A stretch of 64,000 nucleotides of DNA from an uncultured Chloroflexia bacterium (GTDB lineage Bacteria > Chloroflexota > Chloroflexia > Thermomicrobiales > UBA6265): NCBI GenBank assembly GCA_963849635.1, contig CAWKIA010000025.1, forward strand, positions 196,194 through 260,193, read 5' to 3'. Positions 540 through 54,275 of this stretch are shown piece after piece. The position numbers and the translations under genes are program-made. Positions within the stretch are counted from its first letter, which is position 1. Every line of letters begins with the position of its first letter. The notes beneath the pieces were generated by a model. The model saw only the letters and a program-made list of their open reading frames with translations. It did no database searches and had not been told where the DNA came from.

Positions 540-1376
540 ATGGATCTCGACGAGCAGATGCAGACAACCGGCCTGAACCGGCGGCGCCTCCTGCGAGGAT
601 TGGCCGCGGCGGGGTTCGCGGTTCCCGCGCTCGCCACGTTGCGAGTCGCCGCGCAGGACTCCGGCAGCGATTCGACTGGCGGCGACGCCACCGAGGACGT
701 GACCGGTGGTGACAACACCGGCGGCACCGGTACCGGCGGCTCTGGTGGCGCCGGCGGTTCAACCGGCGGCAGTGGCACCGGCGGCGACGCGTCCGGCGGC
801 GGCGCCACGACCGGCAATACCTCCGGCGGCAACACCGCTGGCGGCGGTCATCAGGCCGGCAGCGGCGGCAGCGCCACCGGCGGCGATAGCTACGCCGGCG
901 CCGGCATCGGCGGCGATGCCGGCACGGCAACCGGCGGCGACGCGACCGGTGGTGTCGGCGGAACCGGTGGCGTTGGTGGCTCCGGTGGTAACTCGTCGAG
1001 CGGTAGCGCCTCCGGTAGCGCCGGCGGCGGCTCCTCCAGCGGCAGCGAGACTGTCGGCGGTGGCGCAACCAGCGTCTCGGCCGCGGGCGACGGAACCGAA
1101 ACCCCATCGAATGCCAGCAACGCGCCGGGCTCCGGCGTGGTACCGGATTCCGGTTTCAGTATCGGTGGCAACACGACGACCGTAACGGCAGCCGGTGGCG
1201 CCGGGGGCAGCGTCTCCGTGCCGACCCCGGGCGGCCTATTCAGTGCATCCGGCGGTTCCTCCCTAAGCGAACTCGTTTCCGCCGCGACAGGCGGCGACAC
1301 CGGTACCGGCGTGATCACCCGATCCAACATCTTCTCTGGATCGTCACGCCGTTCCTACTGGAACCGCCGCCGTTAG
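540..1376 (+). CDS. Tat-signal secreted Gly/Ser/Thr-rich low-complexity protein
   Basis: GGAGG at 524-528 precedes ATG 540. The N-terminus MDLDEQMQTTGLNRRRLLRGLAAAGFAVPALATLRVAA has a twin-arginine motif plus a hydrophobic stretch ending in A-x-A. About 250 aa of GGDATGG/GGSGG-type repeats follow. The antisense ORFs here (394..1107, 500..835) are Arg/Pro-rich nonsense. Confidence 0.6.
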   Translation: MDLDEQMQTTGLNRRRLLRGLAAAGFAVPALATLRVAAQDSGSDSTGGDATEDVTGGDNTGGTGTGGSGGAGGSTGGSGTGGDASGGGATTGNTSGGNTAGGGHQAGSGGSATGGDSYAGAGIGGDAGTATGGDATGGVGGTGGVGGSGGNSSSGSASGSAGGGSSSGSETVGGGATSVSAAGDGTETPSNASNAPGSGVVPDSGFSIGGNTTTVTAAGGAGGSVSVPTPGGLFSASGGSSLSELVSAATGGDTGTGVITRSNIFSGSSRRSYWNRRR

Positions 1377-3591: not shown

Positions 3592-4689
3592 CTATGCGAA
3601 CGCGGCGCTCGGCACCTCGCCGAGCGCCGCGATCTCGTCGTCGGAGTGGCCCGCTTCGCGAAGCGGTTGGACGATGTCAGTGCGCAGATCCGGGACATAG
3701 CAGGCAATCAGCGCGGTTGCGTTGTCCGGAACGATGGTGAATTCACCCAATGCCGCCGGAATGATGCATGACTCAGCCTGACCCAACGTTGTCACGCCGC
3801 CGTTGAAGGCGATGCTGACCATCGGACCGAGGTTGGATAACGTCAGGCATTTACCGATTGGGGCTGTATGCCGATACGGAGCGACCAGCGACCAACGCTC
3901 AAGAGCGAAGTGCGGGCCAGCTGCGCCGACGGAAAACCGGTTTCCATTCTCGGCATGATTGGTCTTCTTCAATCCACCGTTTGGCTTCGGCAGATAGTCC
4001 GACTTCAGTTCCGCCAGGGTGGACGCGATGTTCTGATCCCACTCGTCGTCCGGCAGGCGGTTGCCCGCTAGATCGGTCGGCATGACGGATTGGTTCAGAT
4101 CCGAGGTCTGCTGGATCTCAAAAATCAGCGTGTCTGGTCCGAACGAATGCAAGATGCCTCCCGGTACGTAGACGGTATCGCCGGAATGGATCGGATAACG
4201 CGGCATCACCCGATCGTAGTCTTGCGCCTTGAATGCTGCAGTCAACTCCTCTGGTGTCACGCCTGACTTGATGCCTGCCAAAATCGTTGCATCGTCCGCG
4301 CACCAGAGGATATGCCAGGCTTCGGTCTTTCCGTGGGGAGCATCGTGCAATCGACGGGCAGTCTCATCGTCGGCATGCAGATGGACCGGGAGCATATGGG
4401 AGGCGTCGAGGAACTTAGCGAGCAACGGAAAATGAAGTCCGCTTCCACCAACTCCAACCACCTCTTCTGGATGCGCCCGGATCAACTCATGAAGATGATG
4501 CCCAGCATGTGGACCCTCAACGATCGTCCCTGACGTGTGCGCGTAGTCGCTGATCTCCCAGGTCTCGGCCACGATCCCTTCGGGCGTACCTCGTTTACCG
4601 AGCATCTCGGGGATGAGTCTGGCGCCGAAGGCGTAGTTTCGGACGTGGTACGTCACCTTGATCGGCTGCCAGTTCACCGCCTCACCCAC
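3592..4689 (-). CDS. manA: Mannose-6-phosphate isomerase, class I
   Basis: FPLLAKFLDA...LPVHLHADDE and GKTEAWHILW match the type I PMI (Bacillus ManA) motifs FPLLTKxLDA...VHPDD and KTExWYIL. The N-terminal RLIPEMLG region is also conserved. Confidence 0.8.
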   Translation of the reverse strand: MGEAVNWQPIKVTYHVRNYAFGARLIPEMLGKRGTPEGIVAETWEISDYAHTSGTIVEGPHAGHHLHELIRAHPEEVVGVGGSGLHFPLLAKFLDASHMLPVHLHADDETARRLHDAPHGKTEAWHILWCADDATILAGIKSGVTPEELTAAFKAQDYDRVMPRYPIHSGDTVYVPGGILHSFGPDTLIFEIQQTSDLNQSVMPTDLAGNRLPDDEWDQNIASTLAELKSDYLPKPNGGLKKTNHAENGNRFSVGAAGPHFALERWSLVAPYRHTAPIGKCLTLSNLGPMVSIAFNGGVTTLGQAESCIIPAALGEFTIVPDNATALIACYVPDLRTDIVQPLREAGHSDDEIAALGEVPSAAFA

Positions 4690-4811
4690 CGCGTTTCCCC
4701 TTTTTCACCGGCGCACCCTGGCGCCGCTCCCGCTAGAATGCCGGATCTTCGGACTTCGAGCTGACCTGCCATCGCTGAGGCGGCAGGGAGTGATTCTAGT
4801 GGAGTGGCGCG

Positions 4812-6249
4812 ATGCAGCGCAGGGTCGTGTTAGGCGTCGACTCCGGCACCCAATCTACCAAGGTTGTGGCGTTGGACATCGACCGCATGGAGATCGCCGG
4901 CGAAGGACGTGCTTCCCACACCGGAGGCACGACCCAACACCCGCACGAGTGGTGGGATGCCCTCGTCGCAGCCGTTCGTGCGGCGGTCAGACCGGAGATG
5001 GAAGTCGCGGCGATTTCTGTTGGCGGGCAGCAGCACGGCCTCGTCACGCTCGACCGTAGCGGAGAGATCGTGCGGCCCGCATCGTTGTGGAACAATGTCG
5101 ACGCCGCCCCGGACGCCGAGCGGCTGAACGAGATGGCGGATTTTGCCAGCGAGGTAGGCTCCCGCCTGGTGGCCTCGTTCACGATCGCCAAGCTCGCCCA
5201 CCTTGCCCGCATCGATCCCAAAGCCATGGAGCGGACGGCGTCAGTTTGTCTGCCCCATGACTGGCTGACCTACCGCCTTACAGGCGAACTTGCTACCGAC
5301 CGCGGCGATGCCTCTGGATCCGGCTGGTGGTCACCGGCGACCGGTGAAGTCCGACGGGATCTCCTGGCGCTCGCGGTCGGTCCGGAGAAAGCGGAGACGC
5401 TCAACGTCCCTTCGGTATGCAGTCCGGATCAACCTGCCGGCTTGCTGACCCCCACGGCCGCCGACAGCACTCAACCTGCCGGCGGGCATTCCGGTCGGTC
5501 CGGGAACCGGCGATAACATGGCCGCCGCGTTAGGCATCGGCGCGACTGATGCCGAACTTGTCATCAGCCTGGGGACGAGCGGCACCGCCTATGCCGTCAG
5601 CAACCATCCAACATGCGATCCCTCTGGGGCGGTCTGCGGCTTCGCCGACGCGACCGGGCGCTTCCTGCCTCTGGCCTGCATGATCAACTGCACCCGGGTC
5701 GTCGATATCATCGCCCGGATGTTCGGGATCGATCCGCGTACGACTCTCGACCGGCTCGAAGGCATCGAACCTGGAGCTGGAGGCCTGGTCATGCTCCCTT
5801 ACCTTGGGGGCGAGCGCACGCCGAATCTACCCAACGCAACCGGATCACTCCTTGGCCTGACCGAATCCAATGCGGCGCCGGACCTCGTCGTCCGGGCTGC
5901 CCTGGACGGAGTCGCGGCGGGACTCGCCTATTGCCAGGAGGCACTCGCCGATCTGGGAGTTCGCAAAGATCGGGTAACGCTCGTGGGTGGCGGCAGTGCC
6001 CACCCAACCTGGCAACAGGCGATCGCCGACGCCACCGGCCTGCCGGTAACGGTCCGCGGCGGCGGAGAGCACGCCGCCAGGGGAGCCGCCATTCAGGCGG
6101 CGGCAATTGCTCAGGGGGTCGCTGTCCGGGATCTGGCTGAATCATCACGACCGGGCGTATTGGCCGAGCGCGAACCACGGCCCGAAATGCGCGCATCGTT
6201 CCGTCTCGATGAGAGGCGCGAACTGATTGCCGAACTGGCGGGACGCTAA
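4812..6249 (+). CDS. xylB: Xylulokinase-like FGGY kinase, interrupted by a frameshift near 5462-5472
   Basis: ORF 4812..5516 (frame 0) carries the FGGY N-domain: VLGVDSGTQSTKVVALD...GGQQHGLVTLD. ORF 5518..6249 (frame 1) carries the C-domain: GDNMAAALG...LVGGGSAHPTWQQAIADATGLPV. In frame 1 the upstream sequence reads NLPAGIPVGPGTGDN, so it is one gene with a 1-nt indel. Confidence 0.85.
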
Positions 6250-49997: not shown

Positions 49998-51648
<1,651 letters not shown>

Positions 51649-51674
51649 TCCAGCTAATACCGCGTTCGATAGTC

Positions 51675-51712
51675 GAAGGGGGCTGGAGCATTTCCAGCCC
51701 CCTTCGTTTTTT
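51675..51712 (+). terminator. Rho-independent terminator after groEL
   Basis: GAAGGGGGCTGGA-gcattt-TCCAGCCCCCTTC followed by GTTTTTT. Confidence 0.8.
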
Positions 51713-51892
51713 CCATGGTGATGACCGTCGGAGAAACGTTCGGAGACGAACCGAATGCCGATCGTTTTCCGGAGCATGCAGGCCGCAGACGATGGCTTTC
51801 CACAGCTCGGTGCCAGTGGACGTTGCCTTGGAATCAGGCTGGGAATCGACATCTTGGCGGGAAATGGTTATGTTGAACCCGGAGTCGGCAGC

Positions 51893-52150
51893 ATGTCGGT
51901 AACCCCGGTCGACCCGCTTCGCTTGCCACGTCACCGCCGACCTCCCGAACTGGGCGGAACGGGACGTGATCCGACCTTCTGGCTCGATACCGAACTGCTT
52001 CCAAACGGTCTCGTCTACCGGTCGGACCCGCAGAATCCGGAAGGACATGGGTATATTGAGCCTGCCAATCCAATGTCATTCGATCATTACCAGCATCAGA
52101 TTGCTGACACGAGACAATTGTGGACGAGGGTGACCATATGGCGGCATTAG
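51893..52150 (+). CDS. Small basic His-rich hypothetical protein (candidate toxin-like component); ORF may start at 51755
   Basis: Codon usage is lower-GC than the surrounding genes. GGAG lies 10 nt upstream of ATG 51893. Product MSVTPVDPLRLPRHRRPPELGG...NPEGHGYIEPANPMSFDHYQHQI. Its stop overlaps the next ORF by 13 nt. Confidence 0.4.
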   Translation: MSVTPVDPLRLPRHRRPPELGGTGRDPTFWLDTELLPNGLVYRSDPQNPEGHGYIEPANPMSFDHYQHQIADTRQLWTRVTIWRH

Positions 52151-52392
52151 CAACTGGGATGACGACGCACGACCTGTTTAGTGAGGCTCTAGAGTCTGTA
52201 GAGCCTGTGTGGGAACTGCGAGGAGTCGTTCGGGGTCTCCTTGCAGACGGCCATGATCGGGAAGCACTTCTTTCGGACCTTGAGGCCATGAGGGGTGAGT
52301 TACAGGCATCGGGACGTGATAAGGCGGAAGAATCGGTCCTCGATGTGATGGACTTCATCGTCGGTTGGACGTCGCCACATACCAAGCTCTAG
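52138..52392 (+). CDS. Small acidic helical protein with an Im-like (colicin DNase immunity) motif, 3' end truncated by the IS insertion
   Basis: RBS GAGGGTG. Product ...EESVLDVMDFIVGWTSPHTKL*. The stretch SVLDVMDFIVGWTSPH resembles the Im7/Im9 segment DVLDVLLEHFVKITEHP (recalled from memory). The stop codon is supplied by the first bases of the IS left inverted repeat. Confidence 0.4.
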   Translation: MAALATGMTTHDLFSEALESVEPVWELRGVVRGLLADGHDREALLSDLEAMRGELQASGRDKAEESVLDVMDFIVGWTSPHTKL

Positions 52393-53617
52393 GCTAGGGC
52401 CTTTTCAAAGTCGCGAAGGCGCGGTGAGGGCGGCGAGGACGGTGAGCGGGTGGCCGTTGACCCATTCGGCCCGGGCCGTCATCGGCGCGCGCTCGGACCA
52501 GAGCACGCAGCGGCCGCGCAGGAGATTGATGGCCGCGCCGCGTAATAACCCCAGGACCTGCCCCCGGTCGTGGTCCTGTAGCACCTGGCGGTCCTCGCCG
52601 AAGCTGTCATCGGCAACGTGGAACCAGCGGTTCTCGATCCCCCAGTGCCGCCGCGCGACCGCCAGGAGGCGCGGGGGGTCGGCCGCCGCGGCTCCGAGGC
52701 TGGTCACTAAGTAGCGGGTGATGCGCGTGACCTCGCCGGTCGCAAGGTGGACGACCTCCTTCTTCAACTCAGCGACTTGCGCCAACCCCGGGAAGGCGGA
52801 ATACCCCGCGAGGTCGGCGCGCACCCGCAGTTCGCGCCGCTCCAGGCGGCCGTGCCCCTTCTCGGTCGTCACGACATCGGGCGGACCGGGGTCGGTGAAG
52901 AGGATCGCGACATCCGCGAAGAGGGCTGGTTGGTTTTTTTGAGCCGGAAGACGTAATCGCGCTGCCCGGCGACCACTGCGGAGCACAGCGACTGCTCGGC
53001 GAACAGGGCGTCCCCGGTCAGGATCGCCAGGCCCGGGAAGGCGTCCGCGACCTCATCCAACCAGCGCGTTGCCGCGCTCACTTCCCCGCGTAGCGGGGCG
53101 GCAAGTGCCTGATCGAGTCCGAGGCCAGCGTGCTGGGCGAAGGCCCGCAGCACGTGGAGTGGGGTTCCTTCCTCGTGCGTGCCCCGCAGGGTCTTGCCGT
53201 CCAGGGCCACCTCGGTCACGGCCGCGGGAGGGGTCCGACGCGCGATGAGGTCCTGGGCGAAGGCCCGGACCACGCTCCGCACGTCGGCCACCGTGACCAG
53301 CCCCAGCAACCGGTGCAGCGTCGCCACCGAGGGGCTCCGCCGCAGGCCGAGCGGGGCGAGCACCTCCGGGTGGATCGCCCCGTAGCGGCTCACCGCGCTC
53401 AGGGAGCGGCACCCAGCCAGCAATCCCAGCACCACCAGGGCCAGCACCCCCGGCAGGGGATGGACCTTGCCGCGGGCATGCCGAGGGTCGGTCAAGGTCG
53501 CGAACCGGGCGACCAGCAGGCCGAATTCGTCGGGAACCGCAGACGTCGCGGGCATGGCACACCTCCATGCGCCTATCCTCCCCGACGCTCACGACTTTGC
53601 AAAGGCCCTACTCTAGG
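52389..53617 (-). mobile_element. ISAs1-family insertion sequence (about 1.23 kb) with imperfect roughly 25-bp terminal inverted repeats
   Basis: Left IR CTAGGCTAGGGCCTTTTCAAAGTCG (52389-52413). Right IR, reverse-complemented, CCTAGAGTAGGGCCTTTGCAAAGTCG (53592-53617). 18 of 19 match at the inner ends. Confidence 0.7.
52405..53555 (-). CDS. ISAs1-family (H-repeat-associated) DDE transposase, with a frameshift at a T7 homopolymer (52934-52940)
   Basis: N-part in ORF 52869..53555: TDPRHARGKVHPLPGVLALVVLGLLAGCRSLSAVSRYG. C-part in ORF 52405..52986: KGHGRLERRELRV...RRHWGIENRWFHVADDSFGEDRQV. Confidence 0.8.
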
Positions 53618-53798
53618 CGATGCAATATTGTCCGCCGGGCGGAGGTTTGGTACACTCCGCAGGTTCTCGCCGCCGGTGGGCCGGTCGGCTTGTGTTCTCT
53701 GATTGAATTGTGCTGGGATGGCTTGCCTGGACGGGGTATCGCCAACTCGCCGCTGATGATTCGCCGTCGTCGATTGAACTCCAAGGTAAGGTAGGCAG

Positions 53799-54275
53799 AT
53801 GGTCGCGCAGTTGATTCGGTCGATCGAGGCCGAGCAGTTCAAAGAAGATTCCCAGGTTCCCGATTTCGGACCTGGCGATACCATTCGGGTACACGCCAAG
53901 GTTGTCGAGGGCACTCGCGAGCGGATCCAGGTCTTCGAGGGGGTCGTGATTCGGCGGCGGGCCGGCGGAATCAACGAGAACTTCACCGTGCGCCGGATCG
54001 CCTCTCACGGCATTGGCGTCGAGCGAACCTTCCTGCTCCACTCACCGCGCATCGACCGCCTCGAGGTGATTCGCCGCGGTAAGGTGCGCCGGGCGAAGCT
54101 GTACTACCTTCGAGGCCGGACCGGCCGCGCGGCCCGGATCAAAGAGCGTCGAATCTTCCCCAGCCGCAAGGGCGGCGTGGTTCCCACCGCCGTGGCGCCG
54201 CTCGCGCCTCAGGTAGAGGAGACTCCTCAGGTTGAAGAGACCACAGAGGTCGACGAAGCGGCAACCGAGGAATAG
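53799..54275 (+). CDS. rplS: 50S ribosomal protein L19 with an acidic C-terminal extension
   Basis: [32 protein letters not shown]...[11 protein letters not shown]. Confidence 0.9.

Follow-up and report, generated by a model that had tools for sequence, protein, structure and literature searches.

The stretch analysed here (64,000 nucleotides (nt) from an uncultured Chloroflexia bacterium, GenBank assembly GCA_963849635.1, contig CAWKIA010000025.1, positions 196,194 to 260,193 of the forward strand; hereafter the window, with an overall GC content of 64%) carries a pair of overlapping genes between groEL and rplS. Open reading frame (ORF) 1 (51755..52150, plus strand, ATG start) encodes a protein of 131 amino acids (aa) with a Tse2-family ADP-ribosyltransferase (ART)-fold toxin domain, and ORF2 (52138..52392, plus strand, ATG start) encodes a protein of 84 aa from an unnamed family, its putative immunity partner. 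The two genes overlap by 13 nt (52138..52150, plus strand, ATGGCGGCATTAG, from the ORF2 start to the ORF1 stop); an overlap of the same length was found in a related genome (locus L001, see below), and it is as expected for translational coupling, which it would allow. The pair follows the intrinsic terminator of groEL (51674..51716, plus strand; a 15-bp stem with 10 G-C pairs in the hairpin at 51674-51706, then a T-run) after a gap of about 40 nt. A two-gene cassette with a 13-nt overlap behind this terminator had been proposed in an earlier reading made from the letters of the window (the sequence-only reading), and both the coordinates and the hairpin were confirmed. In a scan of the region against Rfam every match stayed below its gathering score; the highest-scoring one, a weak match to BjrC68 (27 bits, where gathering would require 39), was the terminator hairpin itself.

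ORF1 was overlooked by the gene callers both in the window genome and in its relative, and whether it codes at all had been named as a point to be checked. Both ORFs are coding: ORF1 matched its family profile with an E-value of 1e-53 and the ratio of nonsynonymous to synonymous differences per site (pN/pS) was 0.19-0.36 for both genes. An antisense ORF of 183 aa (51834..52385, minus strand) gave no family match and was rejected as a shadow of the two conserved plus-strand genes. The ORF2 product is acidic (isoelectric point (pI) 4.51, 16 D+E vs 7 K+R), as had been claimed. ORF1, which had been called basic and His-rich, is neither basic (pI 6.17, 12 K+R vs 14 D+E) nor more than mildly His-rich (5 His).

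Single-sequence searches with ORF1 and ORF2 against PDB, NCBIfam and PADLOC returned nothing meaningful. Against Pfam, ORF1 alone matched PF18648 (ADPRTs_Tse2) with an E-value of 2.8e-4 over residues 13-117 (105 residues; profile positions 8-126 of 137). A word-index homologue search gave just one ORF1 relative, so that an exhaustive search of representative sequences was needed; with a two-sequence profile (ORF1 and one close homologue) this search collected 1345 clusters at E ≤ 1e-3, 713 of them at E ≤ 1e-10. Relatives of ORF1 reached 28-49 bits on PF18648, over its cut-off, and ORF1 scored 170.8 bits against the profile of these relatives; its membership is therefore transitive and does not come from the single-sequence test. 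The domain occurs either free-standing (about 120-140 aa, with the same N-terminal start) or at the very C-terminal end of larger proteins (446-3469 aa), which carry RHS repeats, SpvB, TcdB and FG-GAP regions and pretoxin-HINT (PT-HINT) N-terminal of the domain and which score above the PF18648 threshold. Judged from these sequences, a C-terminal domain behind RHS, SpvB, TcdB or PT-HINT is polymorphic-toxin architecture.

A profile built from 60 free-standing members matched one PDB sequence only, that of Tse2 (5ako_C, E 0.038), in which GGMSV and HGFIEP of the ORF1 family were aligned with GGTSV and HYTIMP, respectively. The AlphaFold2 model of ORF1 on the 60-member alignment was of very high confidence (predicted local distance difference test (pLDDT) score 96.0, predicted template modelling (pTM) score 0.88). 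It has the ART fold, and among solved structures Tse2 is the nearest to it, other Rhs ART toxins being weaker fold matches. ORF1 thus belongs to the Tse2 family of ART-fold toxin domains and not among the nucleases, and it now has the family assignment that the sequence-only reading could not provide. Residues R28, D32, S48, H98, E102, T119 and W123 are all present in ORF1, each conserved in 92-98% of the 60 relatives, and may include an R-S-E-like set. The toxin domain begins at residue 2 of ORF1, and an N-terminal delivery or signal region is absent. A literature search found no paper on free-standing PF18648 pairs; the 'Tse2' of PMC13340143 proved to be an unrelated protein name.

For the association between the two genes, 80 metagenome loci encoding ORF1 relatives at 38-56% identity were retrieved. 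A hidden Markov model made from close ORF2 homologues only gave a match in the ORF next downstream of the toxin at 61 of 77 loci; a widened ORF2-family profile did so at 69 of the 76 loci where downstream DNA was present, a count with some circularity, since a part of the tested sequences had gone into that profile. The pairing persists where the toxin domain ends a long protein, as in loci L049, L093, L101 and L100 (at least 1126 aa in the last). A further case comes from Nakamurella sp. GG22, where a TcB/TcC-like protein (at least 2631 aa) terminates in PF18648, an ORF2-family member of 81 aa overlaps its end, and a TcA-like gene comes next. Because the ORF2 family is the constant downstream partner of the ORF1 relatives, it is, on the evidence of gene order, the probable cognate immunity family of this toxin clade. 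The sequence-only reading had anticipated a toxin-then-immunity module of polymorphic-toxin type and atypical composition, and this part of it was upheld by the Tse2-family assignment of ORF1 and the constancy of its partner. Its term 'orphan' fits the module in that neither a delivery domain nor a neighbouring full-length toxin gene was found, and misses in that the gene pair is complete.

The association has its boundaries and exceptions. An ORF2-family partner was sought and rejected for the more distant Gemmataceae and cyanobacterial relatives of ORF1 (about 30% identity), in which an unrelated protein of 175 or 143 aa follows the toxin, and the pairing is therefore clade-specific. The cyanobacterial relatives (L004-L016) are about 148 aa long with an insert and stand ahead of a conserved, unannotated 175-aa protein; a phospholipase D-like (PLD-like, HKD) protein often precedes them, and the three genes may make up a system of their own. 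L018, the third of the syntenic Chloroflexia contigs, retains only the last ~10 codons of ORF1 (LWTRITVWQH*) ahead of ORF2, and a ParE-like module fills the rest of the space behind groEL; at 4560..5000 of this contig a ParE/RelE-like toxin (…HVVYYRIGPRSIVIVRILHGAMD…, frameshifted in the assembly) and a small upstream ORF replace ORF1, for which reason the groEL-rplS gap looks like a hotspot of toxin modules. An ORF2-family gene is also kept behind an eroded 40-aa toxin remnant in L107-109, and it closes a row of small acidic genes in L020; immunity genes usually outlast their toxins in this way, as the latter erode or are replaced. Separately, in L112 and L113 a family member (P0210) stands directly after a MazE-like/Fic(Doc) pair and beside a PIN-domain gene; no Tse2-like gene was detected near it, and P0210 is an orphan immunity gene within a toxin-antitoxin (TA) gene cluster.

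Downstream of ORF2 lies an ISAs1-family insertion sequence (IS; 52395..53610, minus strand) of 1216 bp, bounded by imperfect terminal inverted repeats that are about 22 bp long (52395-52416 and 53589-53610). Members of the ISAs1 family are recognised by their type of DDE transposase, by terminal inverted repeats and by the duplication of about 8 bp of target DNA (ISfinder), and all of these were found here, in agreement with the family named in the sequence-only reading. NCBIfam model NF033564 matched two consecutive minus-strand reading frames, 52869..53555 and 52405..52986, with 67.4 and 62.4 bits over profile positions 1-173 and 167-314; with the gene split, neither half reaches the cut-off of 70 set for the whole protein. 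The two transposase frames (52405..53555, minus strand) meet near ...FRLKKTNQP / AQKNQPALFADV. Since the identical split was called in an independently assembled soil-metagenome contig (L019), it is probably real, as a defective copy or a frameshift site.

The 3' end of ORF2 had been thought to be cut off, its stop codon supplied by the inverted repeat of the IS and its native C-terminus replaced. Inverted repeats were indeed detected at 52389-52416 and 53589-53616, and the element proper is delimited to 52395..53610 by an exact 8-bp direct repeat, CTCTAGGC, present as a left copy at 52387..52394 and a right copy at 53611..53618, which is the target-site duplication. The left copy holds both the final sense codon of ORF2 (CTC) and its TAG stop, so that the stop codon is native target DNA. 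Eight ORF2 homologues are exactly 84 aa long and end in ...GW[ST]SPH[TM][KR]L, compared with ...GWTSPHTKL in the window, and the wider family typically ends on ...SPHMKL. Free of the IS, the 3' end reads ...CTCTAG(A/G)C in L018 and ...CTGTAG in L001; the empty site of L018 (...AAGCTCTAGAC...) is collinear with the window after removal of the IS and one repeat copy. The uninterrupted locus that had been sought in related genomes was found in the syntenic region of a Chloroflexia metagenome-assembled genome (MFD02840.bin.2.110, L001/L003), where ORF1 (131 aa) and ORF2 are followed by rplS; its ORF2, at 84 aa, is no longer than that of the window. A short-read contig from another sample encodes an identical ORF2 protein and a 131-aa ORF1, with the next gene 183 nt on, which is the IS-free spacing. 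L019 has the same IS junction as the window, with an IS copy 100% identical over 1225 nt. The IS inserted exactly at the ORF2 stop and duplicated it, and both ORF1 and ORF2 are intact.

With the profile of ORF2 at least 434 clusters were collected, all of them unnamed or 'hypothetical' proteins of about 80-90 aa without a Pfam domain. ORF2 and its family matched nothing in Pfam (0 of 49 members), NCBIfam or PADLOC, and their C-terminal signature is E-x-VLDVMDF-x-GW-x-SPH-x-KL. The model of ORF2 is a four-helix protein (pLDDT 85.5), in line with the helical character noted earlier. A Foldseek search with this model gave no match at E ≤ 0.001, and the fold neighbours were generic helical bundles; profile matches to designed helical proteins in PDB were rejected as compositional.

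The resemblance of ORF2 to the immunity proteins Im7 and Im9 was followed up as well. In the sequence-only reading, ORF2 would be a colicin E-DNase immunity protein of Im7/Im9 type that had lost its native C-terminus to the IS and had a nuclease of no named family as its partner. A short motif is alike (EESVLDVM in ORF2 vs TDDVLDVL in Im7), and ORF2 resembles the Im7/Im9 proteins (PF01320) in size (about 85 aa), acidity and its four helices. Against this, none of 49 ORF2-family members matched PF01320 (colicin_Im) at E ≤ 1, nor did any match another Imm family, and no Im protein was listed in PDB profile searches with the ORF2 family at E ≤ 10. An hhalign comparison with the Im7 sequence gave a probability of 0.7% over 8 columns (ED-VLDVM vs TDDVLDVL). 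The kinship was rejected as a chance 8-residue match: no homology or specific Im-type fold was detected, the partner has the ART fold of a different toxin class and is not an HNH DNase, and ORF2 is of full length. By these results this reading of the pair is refuted.

The pair stands directly after groEL in the window, L001/L003, L002 and L021-25, and in degraded form in L018 (at least four lineages). Both genes are under purifying selection at the pN/pS values given above, ORF1 between genomes at 0.28-0.36. When the window was compared with L001, uncorrected synonymous divergence (pS) was 0.78-0.84 for the cassette and 0.25-0.57 for six flanking genes, and amino-acid identity was 60% for ORF1, 77% for ORF2 and 77-92% for the flanks. 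GC content at third codon positions (GC3) was 0.59 in ORF1 and 0.565 in ORF2, against 0.74-0.93 in groES, rplS and rnhB, and the same contrast between cassette and neighbours was seen in L001. The high divergence of the cassette, together with its low GC3, supports exchange of cassette alleles, or their separate acquisition, at a fixed locus. The horizontal acquisition claimed earlier from the drop in GC is to that extent sustained; part of the GC3 contrast is explained by the stronger codon bias of groES and rplS.

Between the window and L019, ORF2 differs at 6 nt, all synonymous, and over 30 codons in the tail of ORF1 there are 4 amino-acid changes. In the compared segment (L019 1..333, window 52060..52392) the 13 nt differences all fall either in this tail or within nucleotides 1-78 of ORF2, and the remainder of ORF2 and the entire IS are identical; this distribution suggests a recombination breakpoint inside ORF2.

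Several features of the flanks were recorded alongside. groEL (50013..51648) is called as two overlapping frames, 50013..50477 and 50269..51648, over a region of 1636 nt, compared with 1635 nt in the intact L001 orthologue; an assembly error is more likely than a 1-nt frameshift making a pseudogene. Beyond the IS the original 3' neighbourhood resumes with a leader of about 160 nt (53641..53798, plus strand) ahead of rplS (53799..54275). The leader is near-invariant across three genomes whose ORF1 and ORF2 share only 60-77% protein identity, contains a terminator-like hairpin at 53672-53689, and matches no Rfam family; it may be an undescribed leader of ribosomal protein L19. In L001 a DUF433/DUF5615 (PIN-like) gene pair (733..1367), another pair of TA type, lies a few kb upstream of groES.

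Among characterized systems, the closest to the window pair is Tse2-Tsi2 of Pseudomonas aeruginosa (PA2702/PA2703; PDB 5AKO; PF18648). Tse2 shares the GGxSV and HxxIxP motifs with ORF1, and in both systems a small free-standing toxin is followed by a small, strongly acidic, all-helical immunity protein (pI 4.1 for Tsi2 (PMC3325213) and 4.5 for ORF2); Tse2 acts in the cytoplasm, where by analogy ORF1 would act as well. The window pair differs from it in several respects. The toxins are remote from each other in sequence (profile E 0.038), ORF2 has no sequence kinship with Tsi2 and does not have it as a fold neighbour, there is a 13-nt overlap between the genes, and the host is a Chloroflexia bacterium without the context of a type VI secretion system (T6SS). 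To the C-terminal toxins of Rhs and Tc proteins (TreX-TriX, TreTu, the TccC3 hypervariable region) the pair is linked by its many relatives in which the ORF1 domain is C-terminal cargo followed by an ORF2-family gene. Two marks of a polymorphic toxin, recurrence at the C-terminus of large delivery proteins and a specific immunity gene downstream, were thus found. The window copy, in contrast, lacks an Rhs/Tc shell, a pretoxin domain and a delivery region of its own, has its own start codon, and lies downstream of groEL and not of a full-length toxin gene. The TA systems with ART-fold toxins (DarTG, ParST and Res-Xre) would be alike in being two-gene chromosomal modules whose toxin is neutralised by the product of the adjacent gene, and DarTG also has its toxin gene first. 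They belong to a different ART clade, and ORF2 is neither a macrodomain hydrolase like DarG nor a helix-turn-helix (HTH) antitoxin like Xre or ParS. As to a type II TA system, in which the second of two co-translated small proteins would neutralise the first and regulate the operon by binding DNA, the window pair has the gene arrangement and the conserved 13-nt overlap, and an antitoxin with a DNA-binding domain was not found.

We judge with moderate confidence that the cassette is a self-contained pair of intact toxin and immunity genes, most likely an intracellular TA-like selfish or defence module. The following steps are patterned on Tse2-Tsi2 (PMC3325213; reviews PMC6099711 and PMC4899435, citing Robb et al. 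2016). ORF2, whose ATG lies 13 nt before the ORF1 stop, would be translated by coupling; ORF1 would use nicotinamide adenine dinucleotide (NAD+) to modify a cytoplasmic target and so bring about growth arrest; and the acidic ORF2 protein would bind ORF1 1:1 and block its active site. From its context, the toxin would stay in the cell that makes it and work there in addiction or defence, rather than being exported as a weapon. This intracellular role is favoured because no delivery domain or signal sequence is present and the flanks are housekeeping genes (groEL and rplS).

A number of findings weigh against parts of this proposal. The single-sequence score of ORF1 on PF18648 (22.0 bits) lies below the gathering cut-off of 26.6, and position 46, near the conserved Ser48, is Ser (AGC) in the window and Gly in 59 of 60 relatives (98% conserved), so that this copy may be attenuated. 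The biochemical activity and target of the ORF1 clade are suggested by analogy, and where PMC6099711 and PMC4899435 cite Robb et al. 2016, the NAD dependence of Tse2 itself is reported mainly from structure. Likeness of ORF2 to Tsi2, in sequence or fold, was not found in PDB profile and fold searches, and these searches did not connect it with any other immunity protein of solved structure either; the proposed binding and occlusion of the toxin by ORF2 is therefore drawn from gene linkage only. A promoter scan of the ~40 nt between the groEL terminator and ORF1 recognised none, and the sole promoter-like match, within ORF1, was at chance level and was rejected; the pair may be expressed by read-through or from a promoter type outside the coverage of the scan. 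Finally, no DNA-binding domain (HTH, ribbon-helix-helix or AbrB) was found in ORF2 or its family and the toxin-first order is that of effector-immunity pairs, which makes the intracellular TA-like role the least secure step.

The same two features speak for an interbacterial effector-immunity pair, in which the small toxin would be exported non-covalently by a machine encoded elsewhere and ORF2 would protect producer and kin alike. Tse2, the nearest relative with a solved structure, is free-standing too and is exported, with Hcp1 of the T6SS as its carrier (PMC3325213), and Rhs and Tc toxins use the same toxin-immunity pairing. This explanation is nevertheless unlikely, as no secretion, Rhs, Tc or PAAR gene lies beside the cassette, which keeps its groEL-rplS position in all syntenic genomes, and the ORF1 domain starts at residue 2, without an adaptor or leader region. 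Chloroflexia are not known to possess a T6SS. Less probable still is that the pair is a decaying relic, its toxin inactivated or attenuated by the G46S change, its immunity gene alone still useful against related toxins of neighbours, and the IS a part of the erosion. Decay would fit the Ser46 of the window copy, the only one among 60 relatives without Gly46, the loss of the toxin with the immunity gene kept in L018, L107-109 and L020, the amino-acid changes in the ORF1 tail against synonymous changes only in ORF2 between two samples, and the IS abutting the cassette. ORF1, on the other hand, is open over its full length and keeps every other conserved residue, its 170.8 bits on the family profile and its pN/pS between genomes are those cited above, and the IS has left both genes intact. 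The intracellular TA-like role is accordingly favoured first, the exported effector second and the relic third.

Much of what is described here is already known: the toxin domain is catalogued (PF18648), the logic of toxin plus immunity is textbook knowledge, and the IS is ordinary. Mildly new are an uncatalogued immunity family defined by linkage and a free-standing, groEL-linked version of the pair in Chloroflexia. Taken further, the ORF2 family might be an undescribed immunity family that neutralises the whole Tse2-like ART clade, from Tc/Rhs toxins to free-standing ones, and the groEL-linked pair a chromosomal TA or phage-defence module derived from a polymorphic-toxin warhead, its alleles being exchanged at a fixed locus; we regard this as possible, though rather improbable as a whole. 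The analysis corrects an attractive but wrong story, that of an Im7/Im9-like immunity gene cut by an IS, and places an unannotated gene pair in a widespread known toxin family, of which the window pair is an ordinary member. As a by-product, the immunity partner of a large Tse2-like ART clade, Tc-toxin cargo included, is now cleanly defined from genomic data, and the small soluble pair would be a convenient system for determining the toxin target and the mode of inhibition of this clade.
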